This document shows positions 6,993-42,272 of a stretch of 64,000 nucleotides of DNA, in pieces. Origin of the DNA: a virus; IMG/VR virus record IMGVR_UViG_3300045988_183178; one strand, written 5' to 3'. The position numbers and the translations under genes were made by a program. The notes beneath the pieces are model-generated. The model saw only the letters and a list, made by a program, of their open reading frames with translations, had not been told where the DNA came from and did not search any database. Position 1 is the first letter of the stretch. The number at the start of each line of letters is the position of its first letter.

Positions 6993-7556
6993 TTATTCCT
7001 TAGCCAGATTCTTATAGAATCCAACTGTCATAAGTTCTTCTCTTAGCTCATCATACATTTTATGTAATCTGGGATTTACATAAGACATCCAGAGCTTCCT
7101 ATCATCTTTAGCCATAGCGGTTCTGACCATTGTAGCAGAGATAGGCATATCATAACGGTTCATAATAAGCTCTGCTGTATTAGCAAGGTCTTTCTTATCA
7201 AACCAATTGCTTCGGGATTCATCATTTCCATAAATCATTATTTCAGGATTCTTATGAATGTATCTGTCAGTATTATTAAGTAAGTATCTGCCCCATTCCG
7301 GGCGGATATCATTTTCATCTGTTAAATCAGCTAAACCATAAATCATCACTTCCGGTCTATCGCCATATATCTCTTTAAGAATCTTAGTTCTTGTATTAAT
7401 ATTAAAAGGATTTCGCTCTGTGCCACATTCCTGTGCAGAACCTATCAATATCAATAACCGGTCACACAACAATAATCCTGTATCTACAAGGCGTTCATGC
7501 CCTTTATGAAATGTCTGAAATCGTCCACATATTAAACCTGTATCATAAACTTTCAT
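6993..7556 (-). CDS. nadM: nicotinamide-nucleotide adenylyltransferase (NMNAT, NadM/NadR-type cytidylyltransferase fold)
   Basis: GRFQTFHKGH (HxGH nucleotidyltransferase motif) near the N-terminus and ISATMVRTAM (ISSTxxR motif) near the C-terminus. The ATG at 7554-7556 is preceded by AAAGGAG. Confidence 0.8.
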   Translation of the reverse strand: MKVYDTGLICGRFQTFHKGHERLVDTGLLLCDRLLILIGSAQECGTERNPFNINTRTKILKEIYGDRPEVMIYGLADLTDENDIRPEWGRYLLNNTDRYIHKNPEIMIYGNDESRSNWFDKKDLANTAELIMNRYDMPISATMVRTAMAKDDRKLWMSYVNPRLHKMYDELREELMTVGFYKNLAKE

Positions 7557-7570
7557 ATTCTTCTCCTTTT

Positions 7571-7753
7571 TTAATTTTCGTGTGTTATTTTTCTCCATGC
7601 TCGAATCTCTTTACTTGGAAAATGCTTCCATTCAAGACCGCCATGTTTGTTTTCAACAATCATATCTCTAAATATCATATCATCACTCGCAAGTATCTCT
7701 ACTTCTTCATTTACATTGGGAAGCTCATATTCGGGCTTTTTCCATTTATTCAT
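7571..7753 (-). CDS. small hypothetical protein (start at MNKWKK)
   Basis: ATG at 7753 after GAGGAGAAGCAT. Confidence 0.5.
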   Translation of the reverse strand: MNKWKKPEYELPNVNEEVEILASDDMIFRDMIVENKHGGLEWKHFPSKEIRAWRKITHEN

Positions 7754-25225: not shown

Positions 25226-25328
25226 CTTTCTCTTTCCTTTCTGTTTTAATATATATTGTATTGTTTATTCTATTTTATAATGTTTTAGCCAGAAAACCCA
25301 TGGTCTTTAGACCGTGGAATGAATGGCG

Positions 25329-26588
25329 TTAAATTACCAAGGTCTGTATCATTTCAGTTGACCTTGCCATTATGCGTTTACAATTACTCAATTTAGGTGT
25401 CTTGTATCCTTTTGGCATTGCCGAAAAATCAACCTTGTTACCATCTATATCCATGAGAACTGCATATCCAGTGGACATTCTACCCTTGATAAAATATTTG
25501 TTTCCAAAGTATCGAACTTTGTCAAATTTTCTAAAGCCACAAATCTTATCAGTGATAATAGGCTGTTCTGAACGAATCCCTTTTGTTTTTTGAAAATCAC
25601 CATCTGAAATGCATTTCTTTTTGTAAAGGTTGGATTTTACAGTAAATATATTGCCTTGTGTTGCAATCGTACAGGCATCATAATAATGTTCTTTGTCAAT
25701 GCCAAGAAGCAAACGGTTAGCTTTTGTCACATATCCGAAGGTCTCAACTGCATCTGGATATAATTTAAAAAGCTGTTTACGAATAGAGTTCATCTGTGTG
25801 GCATATTTAAGATTACCTTTAACTTTACCACTCAATTTGGGGTTAATTTTTCCACTATGTAAATCTTTATGACAGGTATGACACAGAGTAATTAGATTAC
25901 TTTCTTCATCAGAACCCCCCTGACTACGAAATAAAATATGATGAACTTCTAACTTACTATCCTTATGTTTGCCTTTACAATATTGACAAGTATAATTATC
26001 TCGATTAAGAACCATCGCTTTGGTATTCTCAAACCCATAATTAATACCTTTCTGATAACCCCAATGTTTAATTTTAGGATTAGCAAGATTTGGATTTTTC
26101 ATAAGGTGAGTATCAAACTGACCTGTCTCAAATACCATTTCTGTAATCGGAAGAATAAATTTAATATATTTTATCTCTTTAACATGACTATGAAGCTTAC
26201 TCTGCATCGTAGGGCTAAATCTATCATTCTTAATAGAATTAGCACGATTTAACCATCTTGCTTTTCTATAACGAGCTTTACGATTTCGTCTGTTTCTACG
26301 ATACTTTGCTCTTTGTGTCATTTTGCCGGTAATGTCGTTTCTTATAACAACTTCCGACATATAGATAATATCTCCATTGTCTTTGCTTACAGAAGTGCCA
26401 ATAGTTCCGCTTCCGGTATCTACACCAAGAGTTAAGTCTTGAGTGTAATTTGTTGTTTCATAAGTCAATTTAATTGTAAATGGCTCACGTTTCTTAACTT
26501 TTGCTTTGCTTTGTTTAAGTAACAATCTTGCTATAGAGTTACTACAGGGCATTAGTGGTTTACCATCTTGTGAAATCACATAAACCAT
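25329..26588 (-). CDS. iscB: IscB RNA-guided endonuclease (PLMP domain, RuvC-I/II/III split by HNH, Arg-rich bridge helix)
   Basis: Motifs present: DGKPLMP; LGVDTGSGTIGTSV (RuvC-I); KYRRNRRNRKARYRKARW (bridge helix); CQYCKGKH..HHILFRSQGG..NLITLCHTCH (HNH with CxxC pairs); HYYDAC (RuvC-III). The 419 aa length is typical of IscB. RBS AAGGAGG. Confidence 0.8.
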   Translation of the reverse strand: MVYVISQDGKPLMPCSNSIARLLLKQSKAKVKKREPFTIKLTYETTNYTQDLTLGVDTGSGTIGTSVSKDNGDIIYMSEVVIRNDITGKMTQRAKYRRNRRNRKARYRKARWLNRANSIKNDRFSPTMQSKLHSHVKEIKYIKFILPITEMVFETGQFDTHLMKNPNLANPKIKHWGYQKGINYGFENTKAMVLNRDNYTCQYCKGKHKDSKLEVHHILFRSQGGSDEESNLITLCHTCHKDLHSGKINPKLSGKVKGNLKYATQMNSIRKQLFKLYPDAVETFGYVTKANRLLLGIDKEHYYDACTIATQGNIFTVKSNLYKKKCISDGDFQKTKGIRSEQPIITDKICGFRKFDKVRYFGNKYFIKGRMSTGYAVLMDIDGNKVDFSAMPKGYKTPKLSNCKRIMARSTEMIQTLVI

Positions 26589-26880
26589 AAATAAGTTCCT
26601 CCTTATAAATACTCTACTTAATAGTAGGTGATGCGTACTTTGTCGTACTGTTTACCATACGATTGTTCCGACTTCAACTCGACAATGATATAAAGGCTTT
26701 TATGTACATATCACAAGGCTGTTCTTACTCTGACCTAACTTAAATATGTACGATAGAGCAACGGTCTGTTGCGTCAACCGAAGGTATCATAACCTAAATA
26801 TCGTAGTATCCATTTCTGAATACTTAGTCTGGTGAACCATTTAACAGAAGCCCACTACCTTTAGGTGGTGGGCAGTTCAC
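26589..26880 (-). ncRNA. candidate omega RNA (IscB guide/scaffold RNA) immediately 5' of iscB
   Basis: No ORF on either strand and local G/C enrichment. Multiple potential stems, including the perfect hairpin GCCCACTACC/GGTGGTGGGC. Position and size match known IscB omega RNAs. Confidence 0.45.
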
Positions 26881-27802
26881 TTAATTCACCTGATTCTTTG
26901 TTAAATATAAATATATCTGAACTCAGATAATCTTCTTCTTCCTGAATACCAAATATCTTTAATGCCATTTGAATTTCTTCAGGAGTAAATTCATTGTATT
27001 TACATATCAACAGAATATGTGCTGTAACAGGAACAATGTATAAATTTGTTTTCAGTTTCTCTGAAATATTCTTAAGCAAATTATTATTCAGAATTGCACT
27101 TGTGTTATAAAAGTCAATTATATTTTGAATTGCATATATTCCTTTAATACATTTGCTCTCAAACCCATCAGAATTACTTAGAGAAAATAATTCTTTCTTT
27201 GTTTTTTCATAATTATCATCATCTGCCAGTTGCGTCAAAAAATAATCACCTAATACACTGATAAAATATTTGTTGGAATATATTGAATGAATTGCAAGAT
27301 TGTACAATTCGTTTTCATCAATTTTCAGTATGTCTCTCATATAGTTATTATCAATTACAAACATTGTACCTTCTGAATTTTCTTTAGGTATGATCACATT
27401 ATAAATTATTTCGAACTCATAAAATGGCCTATGAGGAATACCGCTTAAATCTTCCATATTGTCCGGCTTTTGTATTAATTGAGGTATAATATAGTGTTTT
27501 ATATCATTTAAATTAATTTCTGGAGCTAAATTATTAAGTTTATATTCACTACCATTAGAATTTTTGTTTCTATAAAATGCTTCAGATATTGACAATGCAA
27601 TTTCTTCTATTGACGAATTATTTAAATATTGTTTATATAATTGATTTAATTTAAATTCTAAGGGACACATAAACTGATTTTTAGAATGAAAAATAAGCTT
27701 ATCTGATGTGCAAACTATATCTGTTGGTGTAATATCTTCAATATTTTGAAGTAATTCGAATTTAAGATGTTTAAGAAAATCTTCGTAATTCATTTTTTGC
27801 AT
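26871..27802 (-). CDS. hypothetical protein (310 aa); stop codon lies in the loop of hairpin 26860-26883
   Basis: ORF. Confidence 0.7.
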
Positions 27803-27989
27803 ATAATTAATTCTCCTTTTATTTAGTTATATTTTTAATATGACAGAAAAAATGAATTATTATTTTACATAAAATAATTGATGTGTGTTAAAATAAGACA
27901 GCAACTAAATGTAAATGCCTTTTATTTATTAAAATATCCCGTTTTTGTGTTTTTCTAAGCACTTTATTGGGTATACTATGCCTTCACTT

Positions 27990-28400
27990 GTAAAAAATAA
28001 TAACAATATATTGTACGTTTATTGTTATATATTAGTTTAATATGTTAACTTTATTAACAATATATAGTTATTTAAGATTTATTAAAATATAGCTAAGATA
28101 CAAAAATAATAACAATATATAGATATAAAATATGATTTAATATACATTAAAAATAACAACATTATGTTATAGAATAGAAAAATTTGTGTAATAAAATTAA
28201 CAATATATAGCTAAATATTTGATACATAAATGTAATAATGATAACAATATATAGTAATGTATTATCCGTTGCATAGCCAATAAAATGCCTTATATGTGTC
28301 AGAATAATACCATGATGTAGTTATCATATGCTGATTTAAGAGATAAAAAATGTTAATTTGATAACATATAATTGGTAATATTAGCAATTATATATGGATT
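27990..28400. repeat. iteron array: six or more copies of (A)TAACAATATATAG at about 40-52 bp spacing, inside a 1.2 kb ORF-poor, AT-rich region (27803-29083)
   Basis: Copies at 27997-28013, 28055-28067, 28106-28122, 28196-28210 and 28241-28255, with degenerate copies near 28151 and 28358. Confidence 0.6.
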
Positions 28401-29083
28401 AATTGGGTACAATAGACTGTATGATCAGTGAGAAAAATAAATATAACTGATTAATGGGATATAATTATTATTTACTAAAGTTAATTAATGGAATTACTGG
28501 AAACATATATAGGAATGATAGAGTAAAGGAAATAGATCTAAGAGCAAATAAGAAAGAATTAGTGTATAAGAATGCAGCTATTGGAGATAGAAATGGGATT
28601 ATTGGGCTTACTAAGGCATTTGCAGGGCGAAGAATAGATTTACAGGAATCTAGTAATCATAATTTTTGTAATTATCATATATTATATATGAGGGAATTAT
28701 ATTATTTATTAGTGTATTAAAGGCATTAATTGGGATAAATGAAGTGCTTGCTAGAGACAGGTAAGGAATTACCAGGGAAATAAACACAAAATGTATTAAG
28801 CTGATAAATGATATTGTATAAGGATATGACAATAATAGTTATACGCTTTTAATCCTTAATAATATTCTGGCGGTTATTATATTAAGTCTTAAAACGCTAT
28901 TAAGGAATAATCAAATGTATTATATAAGGCTCTAATTTTTATATTTTAATAATAAAAAGCGTATCAATGGAAAAGAAAATAATAAAAAGGTTCTAAAAAA
29001 GGTGTATGACATATTACACTTAAAGGAAGTGTAATCATAAAAAAAATACAGCTACCTATTGATAACTGCATTTTATTTATATA

Positions 29084-31547: not shown

Positions 31548-33233
31548 TTAGCATTTGCGTACTATTGAAGGTGCTGACATATCAGGGTTAATGAATTTCT
31601 TGCATAAATGTTCAATTCCGGTTGTTGAATCAAGCCAATATAAATAATCCCCGTCATTATCTACCAGATATTCATTAATAGAATCAAGAACATCGTTTAC
31701 TTCGGAAACAGTACATATAAATCTGTATGAAGACTTATTTTTCTTTAAAGGTTTAACAGACTTAACAATAATCTGATATACAGTTTCGTCATCTGAAGAT
31801 CTAAAATCATCTACTTGAATTTTTCCTGATAAACATAATTTAGCATCATTAACAAGTAAGTCTCTAATATTTGCATAATCTTTAGAAAAACATACACCAT
31901 TAATAGAACCTGTTTTATCTTCTACCTCAAAAGTTACCCATTCGTATCCATTTCTATCCTTTCTTACAACAAGATTTTTAATTATACCAGATACATCGTT
32001 AACTTCTGTTGAAATATCAGAAATGGGATCTGTATAAATATTATACTCATCAATTGGATGCCCTGTAATATAAACACCTAACACTTCTTTTTCATCATTT
32101 AGAATCTGACCTAAATCATCTTCTACATAATCAATATCTATATTTTCAAGATCATCTTCTAAGCTTTCTATAACTGTCTTAGCTGAATTGATACGTTTAA
32201 TTATGGAATCCTTAGTTGGCATCTTTTTTGAAGTAACTTGAAAGGAAATATTTTCTTCTGAAATTCTTTCCTTAAACTCATCAAGATCAATATAATCTTC
32301 CACAAATTCAATAACTTTACTTGCGTTTTCAATAAACTTACTCTTCTCTCTGATTTTCTTAATTGTATCCTGAATTTCTTTCATACAAATCATATCTAAT
32401 GATATCATTGTTCTTGTATAACCAAGGCAATCGAAAGCACCTGCTTTAATTAAGGAACTTAATGCTTCTGCATTAATATTTGTTCGTTTGATAAAATCCT
32501 TAATATCAGAATATTCTCCATTAACATTTCTATCTTCAATAATTTTAGCTGCTTCTGATCCAACATTCTTAATATTACTCAGACCATACAAAATGTTCCC
32601 ATCTACAACATCACAATGTAAATTTGAAGCATTAATGTCCGGAGGCAATACCTTTACTCCAAAATCAAGGGCATCACTAATATCATCAGCGACTTCATCA
32701 ATCTTATCAGTATGATTTATTACATTTGTAAGATAATAAGCCGGATAATAATACTTAAGAAAAGCAGTCCAATATGATGTAACAGCATAAGCAGTAGCAT
32801 GTGACTTATTAAACGCATACTTAGCAAAGTCAACCATCGCATCCCAGATTTTATGAGCAATTTCTTCTGATATTCCATTTGCAATACAACCTGGTACTAA
32901 TGCTTCATTTTCTTTTTTAGTATCAGCATTACCATATACAAAAGTGTGTCTTTCAGCATCAATCTCATCCTGATGTTTTTTTGACATAGCTCTACGGACT
33001 AAATCAGAACGCCCCCATGTATATCCTGCTAAATCACGAACAATCTGCATTACCTGTTCCTGATAAACTATCTGTCCATAAGTAGTTGACAAAATTGGCT
33101 CTAATTGAGGACATAAATATTTAATCTTAGATGCATCCTTTTTACCTTCTATGAAATCAGGTATAAACTTTTCAGGACCAGGACGATATAAAGCATTCAT
33201 TGCTATTAAATCTTCAATACCTGTTTTATTCAT
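31548..33233 (-). CDS. dnaE: DNA polymerase III alpha (DnaE-type) C-terminal segment (fingers, beta-binding, OB fold), translated as a separate polypeptide
   Basis: ALYRPGP, YQEQVMQI, FNKSHATAYA and the OB region are present. It has its own promoter motif at 33271 and AAAGGAG followed by ATG. The N-terminus (MNKTGIEDLIAMNALYRPGP) continues exactly where ORF 38783..39538 stops (..FQFESAGMRNNLKKL). Confidence 0.85.
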   Translation of the reverse strand: MNKTGIEDLIAMNALYRPGPEKFIPDFIEGKKDASKIKYLCPQLEPILSTTYGQIVYQEQVMQIVRDLAGYTWGRSDLVRRAMSKKHQDEIDAERHTFVYGNADTKKENEALVPGCIANGISEEIAHKIWDAMVDFAKYAFNKSHATAYAVTSYWTAFLKYYYPAYYLTNVINHTDKIDEVADDISDALDFGVKVLPPDINASNLHCDVVDGNILYGLSNIKNVGSEAAKIIEDRNVNGEYSDIKDFIKRTNINAEALSSLIKAGAFDCLGYTRTMISLDMICMKEIQDTIKKIREKSKFIENASKVIEFVEDYIDLDEFKERISEENISFQVTSKKMPTKDSIIKRINSAKTVIESLEDDLENIDIDYVEDDLGQILNDEKEVLGVYITGHPIDEYNIYTDPISDISTEVNDVSGIIKNLVVRKDRNGYEWVTFEVEDKTGSINGVCFSKDYANIRDLLVNDAKLCLSGKIQVDDFRSSDDETVYQIIVKSVKPLKKNKSSYRFICTVSEVNDVLDSINEYLVDNDGDYLYWLDSTTGIEHLCKKFINPDMSAPSIVRKC

Positions 33234-33268
33234 TTTAAATTTCTCCTTTCAATTCATAACTATATAAT

Positions 33269-33281
33269 TTATGACAGAAAA
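33269..33281 (-). promoter_or_regulatory. conserved promoter-like motif upstream of the separate dnaE C-terminal ORF
   Basis: TTTATGACAGAAAA is followed on the plus strand by hairpin 33291-33308. Confidence 0.55.
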
Positions 33282-33319
33282 TTAAAAAAAGCGTCCAATT
33301 TTGGACGCTTGCATGAATA

Positions 33320-33625
33320 TTAAAAAGAATACTTGTTACATATATTTTCTTTTATATAAGTGATCAAATTTTTAGCATAATCTATTCTGTCTTTTAATTT
33401 ATCAATATCATTAATATCATATGAAACATTACCAGTAATACTAATATAAAAATCATCTTTTATGGTTTTAATTTCAATATCATAATATGGAATCTTTGGA
33501 GTAAAAAAGAATCTTATGACTTTACCTGTTCTTGAATCTCTTCTTAATAGAATTTTATATGTTTTATTATCGTATTCATCTATTATCCATGGACCGGATT
33601 CATATGTTCTAATAAAAGTTACCAT
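33320..33625 (-). CDS. hypothetical protein
   Basis: ORF. Confidence 0.65.
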   Translation of the reverse strand: MVTFIRTYESGPWIIDEYDNKTYKILLRRDSRTGKVIRFFFTPKIPYYDIEIKTIKDDFYISITGNVSYDINDIDKLKDRIDYAKNLITYIKENICNKYSF

Positions 33626-34206
33626 TATCTTACTTCTTCCTCTCTGTTATCTTTATTAATTTCAGTATGAATTACATCTGGCATAATTTTATCTTCATCA
33701 TCTTCTCCGCCTAAATCTAAATCAATATCTGATAGTTCATTTGTGTCAATATTGTTTGTTATATTACTAATATTAACACTTTTACAATTTTGAGTCATTG
33801 CCTTTATAACATCATCTATAGTTTTAGCATCTCTACCGATTCCGTCAAGATAAAAAGCAGCCGTTATCTGGGCGCAAAAATCTGCGATTATATGTCTATC
33901 AGTTGTTTCAGGGCAAAACTTAGGAACATTATAATATTCACAATCTCTATTGATTTGGGAACACGCAGCTATTGCAGCTTCATGTTTAATTCTCCGATTT
34001 TTATCCATAGACTGAATAGCTTCTCGTAATTCTTCTCCCTCAAGTGTAGCATATTTAATTGGAGTTGAATAGTTTTGATGATAAACAATCTGTACATATT
34101 CTCCAAATGCGGCCATATTGTAATTTAACATATCTAAATCATTCTCTCTATATTCATTATCTGGCGAATTTATTGCATTTACTAATTCCTTAAATTCTTT
34201 AATCAT
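33625..34206 (-). CDS. hypothetical protein
   Basis: ORF. Confidence 0.7.
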   Translation of the reverse strand: MIKEFKELVNAINSPDNEYRENDLDMLNYNMAAFGEYVQIVYHQNYSTPIKYATLEGEELREAIQSMDKNRRIKHEAAIAACSQINRDCEYYNVPKFCPETTDRHIIADFCAQITAAFYLDGIGRDAKTIDDVIKAMTQNCKSVNISNITNNIDTNELSDIDLDLGGEDDEDKIMPDVIHTEINKDNREEEVR

Positions 34207-34305
34207 ATTTTTTACTCTCCTTCCATTTATTGTTATAATAAATAAATGACAGAAAAATAAAATAACAAGTACCCATTAATAGGTACTTGTTATTAAGCAT
34301 TTGTT

Positions 34306-34722
34306 TTAATTTGAATCACTCTTATCATGTACAAAATATAATTTTTGTATTAATTCAGATTTTCTTTTTTCATACTGAAATAAATCATTACATTCACATG
34401 ATAAAAAACTTGCAGCAGAATCAATCTGTTTTACAATTTCCTTTACTATACAATCAATGATTTCCTTTGGTGATTCCAATAGTTTAATTAGGCCTAAATG
34501 CTCCCCTTCATGAATTATGAAAGCTGTATCTGGTGTCAAAACTAGCGTTGCTGTAGAGCCTTCAGAATCAAAATAACAGGATGCCGTATTATTGTTATAA
34601 TAATTAATGCACATATCTAATAAGTCATTTGGGACATCAGTTAAATATGAAGCGTTCACTCTACAATTTGTCTTTTCGAATTTAATATTACACCAACCAT
34701 TTGTTAAAATTTCAATTATCAT
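34306..34722 (-). CDS. hypothetical protein (start at MIIEIL)
   Basis: AAGGAGAAAATC then ATG. Confidence 0.65.
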   Translation of the reverse strand: MIIEILTNGWCNIKFEKTNCRVNASYLTDVPNDLLDMCINYYNNNTASCYFDSEGSTATLVLTPDTAFIIHEGEHLGLIKLLESPKEIIDCIVKEIVKQIDSAASFLSCECNDLFQYEKRKSELIQKLYFVHDKSDSN

Positions 34723-34742
34723 GATTTTCTCCTTAAATATAA

Positions 34743-35624
34743 TTATAAGCAAACAATGTTGCCATTTTTAAGTATACTTATAATACTGTTAAGTTCATAC
34801 AAACCTAATATCTGCTCACTAATTTCATTTAACATATTATCTGATACATTAGCGTTATAAGCATCAAGTTCTACATCTGTTTTTATTGTTGCTAAAATTT
34901 TTGACAACAAAATATTATCTTCACTATTTATTAAACAAGTTGAAATACTTTTTCCTTTAGACATATTAGATTCAATATCTGAAATATTCATATATATGTT
35001 AAACAAATTTCCATACTTATGTATTAGTTTACTTGCAGTTTTAGGACCAATACCTGCAGCTCCAGGAATATTATCCGATTTATCTCCCATTAATGTTTTT
35101 ACATCAATAAACTGTTTAGGAGTAACGAAATACTCATTCATAATTTCTACCGGAGTCCAAATATCTTCCGGGTTGTTTGGAACAACTAATGATACTAAAT
35201 CATTACATAATTGTAACAAATCATGATCTGCAGATATAATATTAACCTTATTTCCGGCTTTACTTTCAATAGTTGAAATTGTTCCTATAATATCATCTGC
35301 TTCATATCCTTCTTTTTCAATAACACATATATTCATTGTTTTAAGAATAGGAACAATAGCCTGTCTCTGAATCTTAAATTCTTCCGGTGCAGGATCTCTA
35401 GTTGCCTTATACCCGTTATACATTAAATGCCTGAAAGTTGGCTTTGCAGTATCAAACGCAACAATTAATTCATCAGGACTATACTTTTCTTTCATATATA
35501 GAATTGTATTTAAAGCTCCTTTAATTGCATTAGTCGGAAATCCCTTTGAGGTTTTTAATTCTGGAACACCATAAAAAGATCTTCTGAGAATGTAATTCCC
35601 ATCAAAAATCATAATATTTTTCAT
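34743..35624 (-). CDS. 5'-3' exonuclease / flap endonuclease (Pol I N-terminal-domain / T5 D15-like)
   Basis: N-terminal domain IFDGNYILRRSFYG; the catalytic region has EADDIIGT; H3TH-like GIGPKTASKLIHKYG. RBS AAAGGAG at the internal start MKNIMIF. Confidence 0.8.
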   Translation of the reverse strand: MKNIMIFDGNYILRRSFYGVPELKTSKGFPTNAIKGALNTILYMKEKYSPDELIVAFDTAKPTFRHLMYNGYKATRDPAPEEFKIQRQAIVPILKTMNICVIEKEGYEADDIIGTISTIESKAGNKVNIISADHDLLQLCNDLVSLVVPNNPEDIWTPVEIMNEYFVTPKQFIDVKTLMGDKSDNIPGAAGIGPKTASKLIHKYGNLFNIYMNISDIESNMSKGKSISTCLINSEDNILLSKILATIKTDVELDAYNANVSDNMLNEISEQILGLYELNSIISILKNGNIVCL

Positions 35625-35732
35625 TAATTTTTCTCCTTTATAATTTTTAATATATTTATGACAGAAAAAAAGCAGGAAACATAAGTCTCCCGCTTTCAAA
35701 AAATCTTATTTAGTTATGAAAAATCAAAATAT

Positions 35733-35990
35733 TCAATTTCTTTCACTTAAGAATTTTTCCACAGCATCTTCAACAGCTTCATATTCAGTAAGACCGTTAC
35801 CTTCTGCGTAAGTATCATAAGCTGCTTCACCAATATCAATATAATCATTCTCAGTAATATCAGAATGATATTGAGACTGAATAATCTCTTTAGCTGTATT
35901 AATCATCCATGTTGAAACAAATTCCTTATGAGCAGCATAAATTTCGTCATATGTTAATTTTATTTCCTTACCATTTCTTATTATTGTCAT
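35733..35990 (-). CDS. small hypothetical protein
   Basis: AAAGGAG then ATG. Promoter-motif variant at 36037. Confidence 0.65.
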   Translation of the reverse strand: MTIIRNGKEIKLTYDEIYAAHKEFVSTWMINTAKEIIQSQYHSDITENDYIDIGEAAYDTYAEGNGLTEYEAVEDAVEKFLSERN

Positions 35991-36072
35991 GTCTTATTCT
36001 CCTTTAGTTGTTATTATTTTCATCAGAATTATCATATATGACACTTTCAATTATATTAATTGCTGTATTTGC

Positions 36073-36129
36073 ATGAACTACTCACAACCGACTATTGTCG
36101 GATGGAGTTTTCTTACAATTCTTCGATAA
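36073..36129 (+). repeat. 57 bp dispersed repeat, copy 1 (ATGAACTACTCACAACCGACTATTGTCGGATGGAGTTTTCTTACAATTCTTCGATAA)
   Basis: Near-identical to copies 2-5. Contains the hairpin ACTC..CCGAC TATT GTCGG..GAGT followed by TTTTCTT on the plus strand. Confidence 0.8.
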
Positions 36130-36160
36130 TATTTAAAGTTTTCATAAAATTCCTTTCTTT

Positions 36161-36619
36161 TTACAATGTACTTTTTATAACCTTAACAGGTTCTAATCTG
36201 CCGTTTATAAATGAAGCAGTTCCTAATGTTTTATCAGTATTTTTAGAAGATTCAAAGAAATCATTTGCCATATCCTCATTTGAAAAATATGAATATTCTC
36301 CTGAATTGTCTCCGCAATCTGACTCATATCCTATCCAAACATAATAAAATGAAAATCTTTCAAGGTTATCACTGTCGTCAGGGATTGCTCCGTTCCAATC
36401 ATCATTTTCTTTTATATCTTCTTCTAATTCATATTTAAACTCGCTCATCATATTAGGATCGTCTAAATATACACATTTATGGTAATTATCAACTGCAATT
36501 GCGCATTTCTGTCCTAATGGATGCAGTAAATAATTCTTAGGCACTTCCAATAATGCTCCTATCATATCATTTACTGTTTCTAAGTTATTTTCCTTAATTT
36601 CAAATGCATTAGTTTTCAT
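36161..36619 (-). CDS. hypothetical acidic protein
   Basis: ORF. Confidence 0.65.
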   Translation of the reverse strand: MKTNAFEIKENNLETVNDMIGALLEVPKNYLLHPLGQKCAIAVDNYHKCVYLDDPNMMSEFKYELEEDIKENDDWNGAIPDDSDNLERFSFYYVWIGYESDCGDNSGEYSYFSNEDMANDFFESSKNTDKTLGTASFINGRLEPVKVIKSTL

Positions 36620-36703
36620 AATTTTATTCTCCTTTTTAAATTTTATAATAATACAATGACAGAAAAATAAAAAAACTGGCTACTAATAGTAACCAGTTTA
36701 ATT

Positions 36704-37693
36704 TTATAACTTTACAATTTTCTCATTAACTTCCATTCTAAATGTATTGATTTTGTCTATATCCGGCTCATCTGGCAATACAGAGTTTTTACATGCATTT
36801 TCAAACTTATTCTTGTATTCATCTACTATTTCAAAGAAATGTTTATTAGGGATTCCATTTTCATCAAGATATACACCATTTCTAATATCCATCAACAAAT
36901 CATGTTCTTTAATTCTTTTCGTTTGAATTTTCCCTTCAGAAACTAAATCAATTCCCATCATATACAATCTAAGTAAATGCATACTATGTTTTGCTATTTT
37001 ACCATGATTTAATGCATGTTCATTCCTTTTACTTGTTTTCCGGTAATCTCTTAAAGTGTTATTAAATTCTGAAAGCATTCCTGACAAATCTTCCATTGAA
37101 CACTGTGTTGCAATAATATTGCATTTGATTTTGCCGTCAACCAAATAAAAAGACACATTATTTTCATCTAAATTGTACTTATCGTTCATTTTCTTGGACA
37201 TATTATTAAGCACTCCAGAAATGTGTCTATTTAATTCTTCTTCCGTTAAAGCAGCGTTGGTCTTCTGCTGCATACGGTATAACTGTTGTAATGCATATTC
37301 ACTAAATGTATTAATACATCTATTCGATAAAAAAATATCTTTATTTTTTAATAAAAGCTCCCCAAATTCATTTTTATAAATATAATCATCTGTATCTAAT
37401 CCTAAAAGTTCAATAGTGTTTGGATTGCATTTAGCTAATAAATCAATAATTTTGTCAAAACTATAAATAGTTGTATCTGTATTAACATCTACAAAATTTT
37501 CAAAATCATTACCTAACAAGATATCTTCTTTTCTTCTAACAGCAACTCCTCTTATATCAATATCGCTTTCTGGAAGATTTGTCCCATATGCTCTGCTACC
37601 ACCTAATCCAAGTATACAAATATTCTTATCTAAATTTTGATTTTCCTTTAAAAATGAATACTCAGGCATATTTAATATATTTTTATTTATCAT
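36704..37693 (-). CDS. Pol-beta-superfamily nucleotidyltransferase (GS..DxD) with a C-terminal helical domain
   Basis: LGLGGSRAYGTNLPESDIDIRGV matches hG[GS]x9-13Dh[DE]h. Confidence 0.65.
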   Translation of the reverse strand: MINKNILNMPEYSFLKENQNLDKNICILGLGGSRAYGTNLPESDIDIRGVAVRRKEDILLGNDFENFVDVNTDTTIYSFDKIIDLLAKCNPNTIELLGLDTDDYIYKNEFGELLLKNKDIFLSNRCINTFSEYALQQLYRMQQKTNAALTEEELNRHISGVLNNMSKKMNDKYNLDENNVSFYLVDGKIKCNIIATQCSMEDLSGMLSEFNNTLRDYRKTSKRNEHALNHGKIAKHSMHLLRLYMMGIDLVSEGKIQTKRIKEHDLLMDIRNGVYLDENGIPNKHFFEIVDEYKNKFENACKNSVLPDEPDIDKINTFRMEVNEKIVKL

Positions 37694-37715
37694 ATTCTCT
37701 TCCCTATCCTTGTAA

Positions 37716-37771
37716 TTAAACTACCCACAACCGGCTATTGTCGGTTGGGGTTTTTTGCTTAATTGCGATAA
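37716..37771 (+). repeat. 57 bp dispersed repeat, copy 2 (diverged; ends 22 nt before the nucleotidyltransferase ATG)
   Basis: AAACTACCCACAACCGGCTATTGTCGGTTGGGGTTTTTTGCTTAATTGCGATAA. Confidence 0.75.
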
Positions 37772-37781
37772 TATCATTCTT

Positions 37782-38414
37782 TTATTTTCTAACAATAGCA
37801 GAAAAATCTACTGACTGTAAAATCTTAATGATATCTTCTACTTCAGGACTTCTCCATGCAGTCATAGCATAGGTATGAGCGTACTCATCGTAATGATAAT
37901 GATTTGCCTTTAGATGTTCAGCGGCTGCCTTTTCTGTTAAAAACATTGTGTTTTCATAAATTTTATCTCTATATGCATAACAGGTGAAAGTATATCTGCC
38001 ATAATTATGCTCATTCAACCAAGTCTTTAAATCATCAAGATCAGCTAAACATTCCTCATAATCATTATCTTCTTTTGATGTAACATAATATCCATCATAT
38101 TCTTTTGAAATAACCCAAGAATCACCGTTTTCTTCAAATTCCTTATTAAAAAATACAATTGCATCATCAATATTATCAGCAACTTCTTCGACTGCCTCAT
38201 TATCTATTAATGTTACACCGTCTTCATATCCTTCTGGAACAATACACTTTTCTTTCCCCATAATAACCCAAAATCGAGGATCAGCTTGTCCTACATGGTC
38301 CTGTGTATTTAATTCATGCTGCAAATCAGACAAAAATTTGATTTCTTTATCTGTAATTTTATGTTTCTCTACTGTGTCTGGATGGTATTGTAAATGTTCA
38401 TGAAATATTGCCAT
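37782..38414 (-). CDS. hypothetical protein
   Basis: ORF. Confidence 0.7.
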   Translation of the reverse strand: MAIFHEHLQYHPDTVEKHKITDKEIKFLSDLQHELNTQDHVGQADPRFWVIMGKEKCIVPEGYEDGVTLIDNEAVEEVADNIDDAIVFFNKEFEENGDSWVISKEYDGYYVTSKEDNDYEECLADLDDLKTWLNEHNYGRYTFTCYAYRDKIYENTMFLTEKAAAEHLKANHYHYDEYAHTYAMTAWRSPEVEDIIKILQSVDFSAIVRK

Positions 38415-38441
38415 ATTTTTCTCCTTAAACTTTATTTATTT

Positions 38442-38678
38442 TTATTCAGTATAGTATTGGAATGCACAATCATACATTTGTTTCCCAGTTATCTGATCTG
38501 TGAATATAGGGCAATGCCAATCCTTATTAAATCCTGTTTCCTTACACCATTCATTAATAACTCTAGTAGTAATTGGTGTGACAAATACATATAAATCTGA
38601 TTCATGGTGAAACATATCTTTTTCAGAATATCCAACCTCAATGAATCGTTGCATAAGAGTTTTATTATTTTTCTCCAT
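38442..38678 (-). CDS. small hypothetical protein
   Basis: AAGGAGAACAATATT then ATG. Confidence 0.6.
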   Translation of the reverse strand: MEKNNKTLMQRFIEVGYSEKDMFHHESDLYVFVTPITTRVINEWCKETGFNKDWHCPIFTDQITGKQMYDCAFQYYTE

Positions 38679-38716
38679 AATATTGTTCTCCTTTATTTAT
38701 TATAATTTAAAAGAAA

Positions 38717-38729
38717 TATGACAGAAAAA
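38717..38729 (-). promoter_or_regulatory. conserved promoter-like motif immediately after dnaE exon 2
   Basis: TATGACAGAAAAAA plus hairpin 38731-38752. Confidence 0.55.
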
Positions 38730-38782
38730 ACGCACATCATAATGACATGCGTTTTAATACAAAATATTCAATTAACTATTCA

Positions 38783-39538
38783 CTATGAGCATAACTTCTT
38801 AAGGTTATTTCTCATACCGGCTGACTCAAACTGGAAAACATTCTTAGTTCTTCCTTTTGCATATACTTCTTTGTATACCTTATCAGCTTTAGGACCCTCT
38901 AATGGAATATTCATTACATCAATTACTTCTCCTGTATCTCTCTGAATCATTCTGAGTGTGTCAGTAATAATTGTAAGAGTTTTTAATCCAAGAAAATCCA
39001 TTTTTAATAATCCATTAGCTTCGCACTGAATCATGTCCATTTCTGTAGTTTTAATTCCCTTTTTTCCATCTCTAATAGGAATATAATCAGTAACATCATT
39101 ACTATCATAAATAATAACACCTGCGGCATGTTGTGCGTATGTCGTAAGCATACCTTCACAATGAGCTGCAATATTAAGAATAGAAATAGCATCTGGATTA
39201 CTATTATATTCATCCTTTAAGAAATCTAACAAAGAAATGCTGTCCTGAATATTAATGCCTAATTCATCAACCTTATTAGTATCTTTCATGCCAACAATAT
39301 CTTCAAAATTAGTTGCTTTAGCAGGCACTTTCTTACGAATCTGATCTCCTAAAGATAAGAATTTCTTTTCATCATCATAAGCTTTCTTTCCATAATATCT
39401 TGCAGCATCTCTGATAGCACCTTTAGCCTGCTGTCTTGATTCTGTAATAATTCCAACAACAGCTTCACTACCATATTTAGCTCTTACATACTCAATTGTC
39501 TTTTCTCTTACTCCAAGAGCAAGATCACTATCGATATC
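38783..39538 (-). CDS. dnaE: DNA polymerase III alpha exon 2 (palm: DIDSD .. KMDFLGLKTL .. FQFES)
   Basis: Protein begins at the catalytic DxD and ends KKLCS followed by a stop. There is no start codon or RBS of its own; it is joined to exon 1 by the intron. Confidence 0.7.
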   Translation of the reverse strand, partial: DIDSDLALGVREKTIEYVRAKYGSEAVVGIITESRQQAKGAIRDAARYYGKKAYDDEKKFLSLGDQIRKKVPAKATNFEDIVGMKDTNKVDELGINIQDSISLLDFLKDEYNSNPDAISILNIAAHCEGMLTTYAQHAAGVIIYDSNDVTDYIPIRDGKKGIKTTEMDMIQCEANGLLKMDFLGLKTLTIITDTLRMIQRDTGEVIDVMNIPLEGPKADKVYKEVYAKGRTKNVFQFESAGMRNNLKKLCS

Positions 39539-40478
39539 CAAATATACCCCTACTTTCGTAGTACTTTAACACTTGTATAAGTGGGATTAGACTATATCTC
39601 AATATAATATTGTTAATATTATATTTCAACGCACTTCCAACTGTAACCATTCTCAGTTGTACTCCTTAAAAAGGATAGTCGTTACACTTTAAAATAAATA
39701 ATATTATATACGAACAATTTTTAAGTCATTCCATTTTAAATATTTATGCATTGAGGAATAACTTGCGTTATATTTTTCTTTAGCATATCGAGCTGCTGCT
39801 AATATGCTTTCAAATCTATCAATTAATATATCTCCTTTATATAATTTACAACACTTATAATTTCTTACAGGAGACATAGTTTTATAACTATCATATAAAT
39901 TGTCTTTTCTAGTACACCATTCTAAATTATTCACCTTACAATTTTGTTTATTTTTGTCTTTATGATTAACTTCTGGTAGATTATAAGGATTAGGAATAAA
40001 ATTCATCGCAACTAATCGATGCAATAAATATTTTTTATTATCTAATCTTATCATCCTGTAATTCTTTTTACTATCTAAAAAAGGTTTAAGTTGTCGAATT
40101 TTCCCTTGTTTTATACTAAAAATCTTTCCATATGAAGTTATGTAATATTCGTGGTGATTTTTAATTTCTACTATTTTTTCACCTTTTTCAAGGAATGATG
40201 TAAAATTGATATAATCTATCATAAATATACACCTCCTTATTTATATAATATTATTTATAATCTTAGCACGGTATCGCCTGCTATCCTTCAATATCTTTTA
40301 TATAAAAATATTAGGACCGTAGGTTCTCTTACGAAGCTGCTTCGTCTATGGGTTAAGCTATATATCCTGTTGTGACACTTTATATAGCAGTCTTATTCAA
40401 CTTCTACCGTTAGCACTTAATAATAAAATATTAAGCACACCTCTGAGTTAGAGTCCACGCTGAACGCCCAATATATTT
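39539..40478 (-). other. group I intron (about 940 nt) interrupting dnaE at the SMP|DID codons; carries an HNH homing-endonuclease ORF
   Basis: The 5' exon ends in U (..ATGCCT) and the intron ends in G (..GGGTATATTTG). The intron has G/C-rich structured flanks, including an S-like element GAGATATAGTCTAATCC and an ACTACGAAAGTAGGG hairpin. Confidence 0.65.
39704..40222 (-). CDS. HNH homing endonuclease (freestanding phage HNH_3-like)
   Basis: HRLVAMNFIPNP...EVNHKDKNKQNCKVNNLEW matches the HNH motif of phage intron endonucleases. AAGGAGG then ATG. Confidence 0.8.
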   Translation of the reverse strand: MIDYINFTSFLEKGEKIVEIKNHHEYYITSYGKIFSIKQGKIRQLKPFLDSKKNYRMIRLDNKKYLLHRLVAMNFIPNPYNLPEVNHKDKNKQNCKVNNLEWCTRKDNLYDSYKTMSPVRNYKCCKLYKGDILIDRFESILAAARYAKEKYNASYSSMHKYLKWNDLKIVRI

Positions 40479-42272
40479 AGGCATACTTACTCTTTCTGGA
40501 TTTAAGAATCGTTCAAAAATCAGATTATACTTAAATGGATCAATTCCGGTAATACCAAGTAAATATGTAACCAATGAACCGGCACCTGAACCTCTTCCAA
40601 TGCCTATTCCAATTCCGGTATTATAATTGTGAGCCTTAACATACTCTTTTGCACCTTCAATTGTTAAAGGTACTTCTGATAGTTTATCCATAGGTACTAA
40701 TCCACAAATTCTTCCATATTCCAGGAAGTCCTTTACAATTAAATGATAATCGGCAAAGCCCATCTGAATGATAATATTAAGTTCGTATTCCATTCGTTTC
40801 TGATGTTCTTCATCCCATCCTTTTCCGTTAGGATATCTCCAATTAATTCCCTTAATTGCTTCAGATCTTAATAATTCGTTTGAGTCCTTGTTCTTATCAA
40901 ATACTGGATAATGATTAGATTTTTCTGGAATATAAGCACATCTTTTTCCAATTACATTTAAGTTATTGAGTGCTTCTGCAACCTGATCATCTGTTAATAT
41001 AGCTGATAAGGCCTGAGCAAGTTCGTAAGGTGTTTTTACATATAACTCTTTATCTGATTCCGACTCACTTATCTTAATAAATCTTAAAAATTTAGCTACA
41101 TTACGCATATCAATACTTCTATCAGAATTATCTGCCATATGTGCATCATTAGCAGCAACTAATGGGATATTATGCTTCCTTGCTAACTGAGCTAACACAG
41201 GATATGTTCTGCTTTCCATTTCAAGCCCATGATTCTGAACTTCAATGTAATAATTACCTGCTCCAAAAATTTCCTGATAAAAAAGCATTGTCTTTTCTGC
41301 TTCAGACATTAATTCTATTGGGCTTTTCTTTAATGATTCATAATGCTGTATCTTATTTTCATGATTAATATATTCCTCTACTTTAAGACTTATATCCTTT
41401 AACTCGGCTTTCTTAGCATTAACTAATTTTCTGACATTAGGAATTTTATCTTTAGCTTCCAGAATTTTATTATTTATCTCCTCATATTCGTTAATCAGTT
41501 TAATAAGCTCTGGATCATCATCATTTAAACACTTTCTTGCATCTCTTAATTTTCTTGAAATCTGTGTTCTTTCTGATTTAAGTTCCTTGGAATCACGAAT
41601 ATTAATCAATTCATCTAAATCTGCCGATACCCTTTCAAATTCATCTTTAGCTGAAAGATATTCTTTATCATCAGGACTTATACAATCACGTATAACTAGC
41701 TCGTCTTTTTCAGTAGTATGCTGCTGTGCTTTTCTTTCTCTGTTAATCATTTTATCCAAAACATCATCTGATAATAATTGCAGAGCTGGTGCACCCGAAA
41801 CGCAAGCAGAAGTTGCTATTATATCACCGTTAAAGTTATATTTCTTTAAATCTGATATTGTAATAACAGGCTTTCCCATTCTTTTTTCAGAAGCCTTAGA
41901 ATTTAACTTATCAATAATATGCTTGCCTCTTTCTGAAGTGGCTAACATAATCATATGGCCAATCTGCTCATTTATCTTAAATGGTGGCACTTCAATATAA
42001 GCCTCTACGCCATAAATGATATTAAAAGGATGTTCCTCAGTACTTATTTTCTTAGCGTAATCAATACATGTTTGCATTGCTGAAAATGATGCATGGTCCG
42101 TAACAGCAAATTTAGTATATCCTGCATTAAATGCAGCATCTAAATAACTTTTAGGTTCATCTACGGCATCAAACAAAGAGCCTCCTGGATGGTTATGTTC
42201 ACACACTGTAACTCCTGACTCAATAACCTTTTTTGTTAATTCTCCAATTTTTACATGTTCAAACATTGACAT
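40479..42272 (-). CDS. dnaE: DNA polymerase III alpha exon 1 (PHP domain and start of palm; ends at ..[11 protein letters not shown])
   Basis: [12 protein letters not shown] / TDHASF PHP motifs, then [21 protein letters not shown]. Confidence 0.85.

Follow-up and report, generated by a model that had tools for sequence, protein, structure and literature searches.

An insertion encoding IscB and a predicted omega RNA, with occupied and empty alleles, in a putative very large gut phage

The DNA analysed here is a stretch of 64 kb (the window; IMG/VR virus record IMGVR_UViG_3300045988_183178) whose genes are those of replication and nucleotide metabolism; a RecA/UvsX-like recombinase, a RecJ-like exonuclease and a 5'-3' exonuclease are encoded near the element described below. 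No virion gene was found in the window, and its close relatives are IMG/VR viral contigs. The replicon is plausibly a very large uncultivated human-gut phage, and the window part of its replication region, the setting that the original prediction had named. No match was obtained when the nucleotide sequence of the region was compared with 50,697 phage records, and the phage backbone has no close relative among deposited genomes. Searching with the RecA/UvsX protein for phage taxonomy yielded thousands of generic matches and no resolution. Assignment to the Lak megaphages was unsupported; the nearest relatives of the IscB protein lie in Firmicutes MAGs, not in Prevotella. Assignment to the "Jug" group of gut jumbo phages, similar in GC content, was not adopted either: Jug genomes carry on average about 18 group I introns, and an Rfam search of the 64-kb window found none. 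The locus is composed of the following features.

26861..27802, minus strand: upstream host gene of the DUF5688 family, 313 aa, co-oriented with iscB
26881..26896, minus strand: putative 16-nt guide GAATCAGGTGAATTAA, outside the element and forming the 3' end of the upstream gene
25279..26880, minus strand: whole mobile element, 1,602 bp, with ends set by empty-site alignment
26850..26873, no strand: right-end subterminal hairpin, 7 nt from the element end; single-stranded DNA fold -9.4 kcal/mol, z = -3.0
26605..26880, minus strand: omega RNA scaffold, comprising the HEARO match at 26667..26880 and a 3' extension
26598..26604, minus strand: ribosome-binding site AAGGAGG, 5' of the iscB ATG at 26588 and kept in the family alignment
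25329..26588, minus strand: iscB, 419 aa, with IscB profile and Pfam domain matches
25298..25317, no strand: left-end subterminal hairpin, 19 nt inside the left end; single-stranded DNA fold -6.9 kcal/mol, z = -3.1
25274..25278, plus strand: target motif and presumptive TAM, TTTAT (ATAAA on the iscB strand), outside the element and abutting its left end

The original prediction held that the ORF at 25329..26588 bears the complete IscB signature, and all the motifs it listed are present. The NCBIfam IscB equivalog NF040563 matched residues 2-307 at 341.4 bits (E = 4e-102), far above its curated cutoff of 175 bits. Among Pfam models, RRXRR (PF14239, 3.5e-53) covered residues 2-181, comprising the PLMP domain and the Arg-rich bridge helix, and HNH (PF01844, 4e-12) covered residues 201-245. 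The parts follow in the order PLMP, RuvC-I, bridge helix, RuvC-II, HNH, RuvC-III and C-terminal domain (residues 308-419), with the HNH sitting between RuvC-II and RuvC-III in a split RuvC. PLMP itself is at residues 11-14, D57 lies within GVDTG, the Arg-rich stretch spans residues 93-112, and HYYDAC occupies residues 301-306; the HNH region contains two CxxC pairs (201-204 and 236-239), HH at 216-217, N231 and H244. Solved IscBs match the ORF at E about 1e-40, and every catalytic residue is aligned with its counterpart. In the alignment with OgeuIscB (E about 4e-40), D57, E154, H301, D304 and H217 correspond to OgeuIscB D61, E193, H340, D343 and H247, and the four RuvC residues (D57, E154, H301 and D304) are invariant across 48 family members (alignment A2). 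Judged by these matches, the ORF is a full IscB whose RuvC and HNH catalytic residues are intact.

The C-terminal domain is presumed to be the TAM reader. Searched alone against solved structures, it returned no IscB match; the HfmIscB match stayed collinear as far as residue 403 when the single sequence was used and as far as residue 359 when the family profile was. AlphaFold run on the 48-sequence alignment gave a pLDDT of 40.8, because the homologues among the matches listed were all at least 84% identical. The domain is strongly conserved, with dN/dS of 0.05-0.11 between family copies, and values of 0.05-0.12 were obtained in both the N- and the C-terminal parts of IscB, again between family copies and not within the phage lineage. 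By this measure, the IscB family is under strong purifying selection. The exact protein is present on 211 contigs. Its JGI label is "McrA", and "HNH endonuclease" is the name in many phage records, but NCBI has already named an 85%-identical relative "RNA-guided endonuclease IscB". Among deposited phage genomes, IscB was detected in 18 of 50,697 records; it is rare in phages but known there, and the annotation IscB already exists for close relatives.

Alignment with related phages that lack the insert defined the ends of the element. The upstream 7 kb of these sister phage contigs is about 98% identical to the window. At the empty sites in L010 and L011, GGTGAATTAA is joined straight to ATAAAATAG; the element, read on the iscB strand, starts with GTGAACTGCC and ends with AAAACATT. 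Comparison of occupied and empty alleles leaves the ends unambiguous, with no duplicated base and thus no target-site duplication; terminal inverted repeats are likewise absent. The element lies where it was predicted, but its span is 25279-26880 rather than 25285-26885. The stop codon of the DUF5688 gene (Pfam PF18941 at 3e-28 over residues 32-302) falls inside the element at 26861-26863, and the element supplies the last three sense codons and the stop. The DUF5688 protein ends in ...GELSELPTT* in the occupied allele and in ...GELNKIE* (311 aa) in the empty one. The occupied allele is identical in L001-L009, L056 and L059. Element copies in L001-L008 are at the same site and share 99.8-100% identity along all 1,602 bp, and the L009 copy matches over its available length; at this identity over the matched length, there is no purifying-selection signal within the lineage. 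The empty allele was found in L010, L011, L051, L054, L055, L057 and L058. Five empty alleles and two occupied ones came from one collection, and both alleles persist in gut metagenomes.

The element family occurs at 15 or more different sites, at which the left flanks vary and the right flank ATAAA is constant. Every copy with a readable downstream end has ATAAA directly 3' of the element; these copies are at 15 loci, which stand for at least 13 independent sites. With a background of about 0.005 per position, the probability of finding it by chance at 13 of 13 sites is near 2e-30. From this constancy we infer that TTTAT/ATAAA is the TAM of this IscB. ARAGORN called no tRNA at the insertion site in L023. 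Two hairpins noted in the original prediction both exist, but about 5-10 nt from where they had been placed, at 26850-26873 and 25298-25317. They have similar stems, and each has a TTTA loop and a G-T pair on the plus strand; in relatives, both are conserved and show covariation. The stem of the right-end hairpin covaries among relatives, and its sequence is also the first stem-loop of the omega RNA; hairpins equivalent to the left-end one are present in L012 and L016. The hairpin at 25298-25317 belongs to the left transposon end rather than to a terminator.

The distinct composition and G/C enrichment described in the original prediction were borne out: the upstream stretch has a GC of 0.384 and the whole element one of 0.346, versus 0.286 in the rest of the window, and among stretches of the same length elsewhere only 2.2% have a GC at least as high as that of the element. 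GC amelioration was rejected, since iscB has a GC of 0.30-0.35 in most of 18 copies whatever the GC of the flanks; the outliers were L016 (0.47) and L018/L020 (0.29).

Neither the element nor the 64-kb window yielded a Y1 (HUH) TnpA by tblastn. This copy is therefore non-autonomous, and it may be immobile. A Y1 transposase lies right after iscB in L016, L037, L038 and L042 (PF01797 at 3e-35), the only loci with an intact tnpA in that position; what looked like the beginning of a TnpA behind iscB in L027 and L033 proved to be a degenerate remnant and an internally deleted tnpA. Only about 1.5% of iscB genes adjoin tnpA (Meers et al. 2023, doi 10.1101/2023.03.14.532601), and the absence of tnpA here is therefore typical of the family. 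Because there is no target duplication, both ends carry hairpins, and TTTAT is constant at the left end, we assign the element to the IS200/IS605 family. On these sequence features, 25279..26880 is a non-autonomous IS200/IS605-family (ISC-type) insertion that comprises an omega RNA gene and iscB and lacks a transposase. An acquired element of this family without TnpA had been proposed, and the empty sites, precise ends, hairpins, target motif and tnpA-bearing relatives agree with it.

Directly 5' of iscB lie 292 nt (26589..26880) in which no ORF reaches 40 aa, in keeping with the ORF-free stretch of about 290 nt reported earlier; the upstream gene alone overlaps them, by its final 20 nt. The omega RNA predicted for this stretch was recovered with a covariance model. 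Rfam RF02033 (HEARO) matched on the same strand as iscB at 107.7 bits (E = 1e-22; gathering score, 83 bits) over model positions 1-211 of 211, and it was the sole Rfam match in the 64-kb window. Model position 1 falls exactly on the element boundary, at the first element base. The match runs from 26880 to 26667 and stops 78 nt short of the iscB ATG; the 3' extension beyond it is conserved, contains more covarying hairpins and reaches the ribosome-binding site. Alignment A1, built from 19 relatives at independent sites, has 98% of its cells paired and shows compensatory changes in 37 of the 60 predicted pairs. None of 500 shuffles reached this signal, and slid partners paired in 29-43%. A promoter scan gave 32 matches versus 30.8 expected; promoter and terminator scans together were at chance level.

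The stretch directly 5' of HEARO model position 1 (26881..26896) is the putative guide, GAATCAGGTGAATTAA. It is unique in the window and matches every empty allele found at 16 of 16 positions, followed in each by ATAAA. The guide length of 16 nt is our assumption, taken over from OgeuIscB.

Taking the locus and its sister alleles together, we regard it as probable that this is a non-autonomous insertion sequence whose IscB and omega RNA would cut the empty allele and thereby serve retention or homing. As read from the sequence, the most likely function would be RNA-guided cutting of the empty allele, after which the element would be copied back in. The element would have been inserted, or copied, into the last codons of the DUF5688 gene immediately 3' of TTTAT. 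Read-through from that gene would then produce an RNA composed of about 16 nt of flank (GAATCAGGTGAATTAA) and a scaffold of roughly 275 nt, and IscB translated from the same transcript would bind this omega RNA to form a ribonucleoprotein. The complex would recognize the element-free locus, in which the 16 nt are followed by ATAAA, and RuvC and HNH would cut both strands. The occupied allele would be spared because its guide match is followed not by ATAAA but by GTGAA, which belongs to the end of the element itself. Repair by recombination with an occupied genome would copy the element back; the phage recombinase and exonucleases encoded nearby might take part. Two purposes could be served in this way: the element would be restored after TnpA-mediated excision, and element-free sister phages would be converted during co-infection (homing). 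To reach new sites, the element would depend on a Y1 TnpA acting in trans, from the host or from another element.

A different account, which we consider unlikely, is that the element is an inert passenger that landed once in an ancestor, is immobile for want of TnpA, encodes a silent or irrelevant nuclease and persists by hitch-hiking. The lack of tnpA in the window and the occupation of the same site in every contig of the lineage fit such a history, as do the empty alleles that are still common (five versus two occupied in one collection). Decay would not be visible in any case, since identity among the copies, over the matched length, is 99.8-100% and too little time has elapsed. However, the ORF is intact with all catalytic residues kept, the omega RNA is also intact and its single difference from the sister copies preserves a base pair, and the Shine-Dalgarno sequence of iscB is strong. 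The co-orientation with the upstream gene, which resembles that of active IscB elements, the strong purifying selection across the family and the presence of the exact protein on 211 contigs also argue against inertness.

Far less probable is a domesticated phage weapon, in which IscB would have been co-opted against the host chromosome, host defences or unrelated competing phages. Phages carry RNA-guided nucleases for competition, and the rarity of IscB in phages (18 of 50,697 records) could be read in this sense. However, the guide is the 16-nt flank created by the insertion, as in all other copies of the family, and it has no other match in the window. The one target known to match it is this locus in its empty form, and both transposon ends are retained. 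We looked for CRISPR-like arrays or an alternative guide source and found none; likewise, neither host or foreign-phage protospacers matching the guide beside ATAAA nor guides derived from anything other than the flank were found. The "host competition" role suggested in the original prediction thus has no support: a guide that is the flank would target only the element-free allele of its own locus. Finally, a protein-only HNH homing or restriction endonuclease with a mere leader upstream, as the Pfam HNH domain and the "McrA" and GenBank "HNH endonuclease" labels might suggest, is refuted by the profile matches and the RNA evidence, namely, an HNH inserted in a split RuvC with a PLMP N terminus and bridge helix, a full-length covarying HEARO upstream and the NCBI name of the 85%-identical relative, and we give it virtually no credence.

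Returning to RNA-guided cutting of the empty allele, we advance more tentatively, and with somewhat less than even confidence, the idea that the element acts as an RNA-guided gene drive among very large gut phages. During co-infection, the sister allele would be cut by IscB and omega RNA from an occupied genome and converted by the recombination machinery of the phage, independently of TnpA, as "non-restorative homing", and flanking markers might travel along with the element. Both alleles persist in gut metagenomes, and any such drive is therefore not sweeping. We know of no phage in which such a drive has been demonstrated. Should the drive exist, the natural occupied and empty alleles would serve as test substrates for it. 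"Transposon non-restorative homing" was proposed in PMC13565253, and a TnpA-independent drive of this sort has been put forward on paper by a 2026 review.

The closest parallel is the ISGst IscB element of Geobacillus stearothermophilus. In that system the omega RNA is bounded by the right end, the TAM is the TnpA target motif (TTCAT for GstIscB and TTTAT for GstTnpB2), and insertions tend to share the orientation of the upstream gene (Meers et al. 2023, doi 10.1101/2023.03.14.532601). Like the present element, it takes its guide from the flank, has a TAM that is the TnpA motif 5' of the left end, is scarless and free of duplication, usually lacks tnpA and is co-oriented with the upstream gene. 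In contrast, it resides in a bacterial chromosome and not in a very large gut phage. The OgeuIscB-omega RNA complex (PDB 7UTN and 7XHT) shares the domain order, all catalytic residues and the Rfam family of the omega RNA. The TAM given for OgeuIscB in PMC12660989, NWRRNA, is compatible with the flank motif ATAAA(A) found here. However, OgeuIscB has 496 aa versus 419 aa, the C-terminal 110 aa or so of the present protein are without detectable sequence similarity to solved structures, and the upstream RNA region is longer here (292 nt). Relative to the solved or assayed IscBs, the protein belongs to a distant clade associated with gut Firmicutes (E about 1e-40; the OgeuIscB match covers approximately residues 1-311).

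Clostridium phage c-st, Clostridioides phage pCD1602_4 and Staphylococcus Silviavirus phages also carry IscB-type ORFs, usually labelled "HNH endonuclease" or "hypothetical protein", but these are at most 43% identical to the present protein. We know of no report of an occupied/empty polymorphism with a guide-target-TAM match for any of them. HEARO in phage genomes was noted in PMC13346280. The free-standing homing endonucleases that T4-like phages encode, such as SegF and MobE, resemble the present system in the predicted cutting of a co-infecting element-free allele and the copying by recombination. They recognize DNA through protein, whereas a putative RNA guide and a 5-nt motif would do so here, and the present element, unlike them, has retained its transposon ends.

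This locus leaves the known picture of IscB biology unchanged; it is a clear instance, found in nature, of an element type already known. What it does provide is a complete test case from nature for current thinking on the purpose of OMEGA nucleases: with both alleles in one lineage, a guide match of 16 of 16 and the motif at at least 13 insertions, the prediction that the empty allele is cut and the occupied one spared is directly testable. A compact IscB of 419 aa from a large uncharacterised clade, with the TAM that we infer (ATAAA), may also be of practical use. More broadly, RNA-guided transposon nucleases circulate between the genomes of gut Firmicutes and very large phages, and homing from phage to phage is therefore a realistic route by which they would spread.

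Empty sites came to light in L010 and L011, both IMG/VR viral contigs reached by a search with the upstream gene; there ...AAAGAATCAGGTGAATTAA directly adjoins ATAAAATAGAATAAAC.... Sequence beginning GTGAACTGCC and ending AAAACATT lies between these flanks in the window, which places the insert at 26880..25279 on the minus strand (1,602 bp), with its ends fixed to the single base and no duplicated base. Its first base is position 1 of the model of HEARO, today called the IscB omega RNA. Occupied and empty genomes share 98% identity over the upstream 7 kb and form a mosaic of 87-97% identity on the downstream side, and the difference between them is a presence/absence polymorphism inside one lineage. 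The DUF5688 protein is altered by the insertion in its last residues alone, from ...GELNKIE* to ...GELSELPTT*, and the altered ending falls outside the Pfam domain match (residues 32-302). Two hairpins had been proposed from the sequence; both are real, although their coordinates were a few bases off and are corrected here to 26850-26873 and 25298-25317. One hairpin lies 19 nt inside the end adjoining TTTAT, and a similar one lies 7 nt inside the other end.

The 419-aa ORF of the original prediction is present at 25329..26588 on the minus strand, and the complete set of IscB motifs claimed for it was recovered, in order from PLMP to HYYDAC.

Motifs of the IscB protein
Residues 11-14: PLMP
Residues 55-59: GVDTG
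Residues 93-112: Arg-rich stretch
Residues 152-156: VFETG
Residues 201-204: CQYC
Residues 214-218: EVHHI
N231: HNH-region Asn
Residues 236-240: CHTCH
H244: His
Residues 301-306: HYYDAC

Pfam RRXRR matches residues 2-181 (3.5e-53) and Pfam HNH matches residues 201-245 (4e-12), and the protein exceeds the curated cutoff of the NCBIfam equivalog "RNA-guided endonuclease IscB" (341 bits; cutoff 175). The best solved-structure relatives are IscBs, with OgeuIscB (7UTN/7XHT) at an E value of ~4e-40, and HfmIscB aligns in a single stretch over residues 3-403. The predicted catalytic residues are in place: D57, E154, H301, and D304 of RuvC align with OgeuIscB D61, E193, H340, and D343, and H217 of HNH aligns with H247, all five being invariant among 48 family members. 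Compared with ten relatives at other insertion sites, iscB has a dN/dS of 0.07-0.12; residues 1-307 and 308-410, scored separately for six of the ten, both gave 0.05-0.11. The C-terminal domain (the presumed TAM reader) had no sequence match when searched alone against solved structures, and an AlphaFold model from a shallow alignment was unusable, at a pLDDT of 40.8.

The region 5' of iscB also bore out its description as an ORF-free, G/C-enriched stretch that encodes the omega RNA. It spans 292 nt from the start codon to 26880, contains no ORF of ≥40 aa except the tail of the upstream gene, and has a GC fraction of 0.384 versus 0.286 in the rest of the window (0.346 for the whole element, with 2.2% of equal-length windows elsewhere as GC-rich). 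HEARO (RF02033), the sole Rfam family found across the whole window, matches at 26880..26667 on the iscB strand over model positions 1-211 of 211, with 107.7 bits (gathering score 83). We aligned the RNA from element start to ATG for 19 family members at independent sites. Pairing was kept while both sides changed in 37 of 60 RNAalifold pairs, and 98% of cells were paired; none of 500 shuffles reached any observed measure, and sliding the partners by 1 to 3 columns reduced pairing to 29-43%. Conservation and further covarying hairpins extend past the Rfam model to the ribosome-binding site AAGGAGG, which fits the remark of Meers et al. (doi 10.1101/2023.03.14.532601) that RF02033 is without downstream structural elements.

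Relatives with 67-89% protein identity occupy many other sites in viral contigs (L012-L033) and in MAGs of gut Firmicutes, including Lachnospira, Blautia, Anaerostipes hadrus, Oscillospiraceae, Erysipelotrichaceae, and Sarcina; the loci also take in more distant homologues (35-62%). In the closer relatives, the 5' end, where locatable, reads GTGAA(C/T)... after unrelated flank. ATAAA directly follows the 3' end wherever that end was locatable (15 loci, at least 13 independent sites); given a background of ~0.005 per position, 13 of 13 would be expected by chance with a probability of ~2e-30. ATAAA corresponds to TTTAT on the opposite strand, where it directly precedes the end with the hairpin 19 nt inside. 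A full-length version is found in the 2,046-nt viral contig L016, comprising omega RNA, iscB, a 134-aa ORF matching Pfam Y1_Tnp (3e-35), the end hairpin, and then ATAAA. tnpA also lies directly 3' of iscB in a Lachnospira MAG (L037), a Blautia MAG (L038), and a further locus (L042), and one relative has an internally deleted tnpA (L033) and another a frameshifted iscB (L027). No tnpA was found anywhere in the 64-kb window, in agreement with the original prediction. Together, the empty sites, ends, ATAAA, hairpins, and tnpA-bearing relatives match the features that define a non-autonomous IS200/IS605 element, and we are highly confident that the insert is such an element, of the IscB-omega RNA kind.

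Other traces of insertion were observed among these contigs. A lone 33-nt copy of the element 5' end (L028:1664-1696; 94% identical), 4 kb upstream of a full copy, may be the remnant of another insertion. In a viral contig (L023:5668-5707), a family member directly follows a sequence like a tRNA 5' half (…GCTCAGTTGGTAGAGCAGGCAATAC, then GTGAAC…), pointing to a tRNA gene as the insertion site; ARAGORN called no tRNA there, and the contig ends within the element. A 327-kb sister contig (L004:12494-13260) carries another IS605-type element, absent from the window, ~6.5 kb downstream of iscB, with tnpA (33% identical to L016 TnpA) followed by tnpB (OrfB_IS605/Cas12f-like). More than one OMEGA-type transposon has thus entered this phage lineage.

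The genomic setting is plausibly one of replication, as had been proposed: the recognisable genes of the window belong to replication and nucleotide metabolism. They encode a sigma-70-type factor, DNA polymerase III alpha, helicase, a primase-like protein, RecA/UvsX, RecJ, a 5'-3' exonuclease, DNA methyltransferase, guanylate kinase, and NMN adenylyltransferase; many other ORFs had no match, and nearly all genes lie on the minus strand. No virion genes were found in the 64-kb window, and no close deposited phage was found among 50,697 phage records. The source is likely a very large phage, since close relatives of the window are catalogued as viral contigs and the locus-bearing contigs, from human-gut samples, span 93-698 kb. 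Contigs with the exact locus (those behind L001-L009, L051, and P0001) measure 322, 327, 364, 373, 478, and 649 kb, with a maximum of 698 kb; this phage would be among the largest known, provided that the longest contigs are single genomes and not concatemers or misassemblies. The polymerase gene is in three collinear pieces (31548-42272, minus strand).

Pieces of the DNA polymerase III alpha gene
40431..42272, minus strand: piece 1, PHP and the palm profile as far as position 102
38783..39541, minus strand: piece 2, palm 103-260 and finger 1-59
31548..33233, minus strand: piece 3, finger 63-162, HhH, and OB

A free-standing HNH_3/NUMOD4 homing-endonuclease-like ORF (39704..40222) occupies the first break, and the second, ~5.5 kb, holds six ORFs, including the 5'-3' exonuclease and an RlaP-type nucleotidyltransferase; Rfam detected no intron in these breaks. 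Between the sigma-factor and DUF5688 genes, a ~1.3-kb gap (27803-29083) with GC down to 13%, a local sign change of GC skew, and one small ORF (28454..28720, plus strand) without a Pfam match could be a regulatory or origin-like region. The NMN/nicotinamide-nucleotide adenylyltransferase-like gene (6993-7598, minus strand) fits reports of gut jumbo phages with their own NAD+ metabolism.

The putative guide, GAATCAGGTGAATTAA (26896..26881; 16 nt), lies directly 5' of the scaffold and occurs once in the window; its length is presumed from OgeuIscB. A degenerate junction pattern was used to tell the two alleles apart in public collections.

Alleles at the insertion site
IMG/VR viral contigs: 2 empty, 0 occupied
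Metagenome contigs: 5 empty (one on a 322-kb contig), 2 occupied

The exact IscB protein is also present on 211 contigs of a third collection, lying at this site in 23 of the 23 contigs read. All empty alleles found carry a perfect guide match and then ATAAA; after the guide match of the occupied allele comes GTGAA. The same 24-nt string, AAAGAATCAGGTGAATTAAATAAA, also turned up in a different context in two unrelated metagenome contigs (L052 and L053, of which one is from TARA Oceans). Chance in AT-rich DNA probably accounts for these matches, although the strings would formally be cleavable off-targets.

IscB homologues occur in 18 of the 50,697 phage records (E ≤1e-20), all ≤43% identical to the protein, including Clostridium phage c-st, Clostridioides phage pCD1602_4, Staphylococcus Silviavirus phages, and a 484-kb uncultured phage; HEARO was noted earlier in Silviavirus genomes (PMC13346280). 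The protein family has >7,378 relatives at E ≤1e-20, and an 85%-identical protein carries the NCBI name "RNA-guided endonuclease IscB [Butyrivibrio fibrisolvens]." This kind of element is therefore already known. Its locus geometry, read here from sequence, is the same as that shown for Geobacillus elements by Meers et al. (doi 10.1101/2023.03.14.532601), in which the right end bounds the omega RNA and the TAM equals the left-end motif targeted by TnpA (TTCAT for GstIscB, TTTAT for GstTnpB2). In that system the nuclease cuts the donor joint and recombination restores the element; the same study reports that co-orientation with the upstream gene is favoured and that ~1.5% of iscB genes adjoin tnpA.

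For the phage locus we infer transcription, cleavage, and copying. Read-through from the DUF5688 gene would yield an RNA of guide plus scaffold that IscB would bind; the complex would cut the element-free allele, recognised by the guide match followed by ATAAA; and recombination, with an occupied genome as template, would copy the element back. This mechanism, including activity against the empty allele, is the best explanation and in our judgment a probable one. The window also encodes a RecA/UvsX-like recombinase, a RecJ-like exonuclease, and a 5'-3' exonuclease, and a promoter scan of it returned matches at chance level. In the phage, the complex might cut a sister genome from which TnpA had excised the element, or an element-free relative present in the same infection, the latter case being termed "non-restorative homing" in a 2026 review that names co-infecting phages as a theoretical target (PMC13565253). 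The value of the element lies in its clean natural pair of occupied and empty alleles with a readable TAM.
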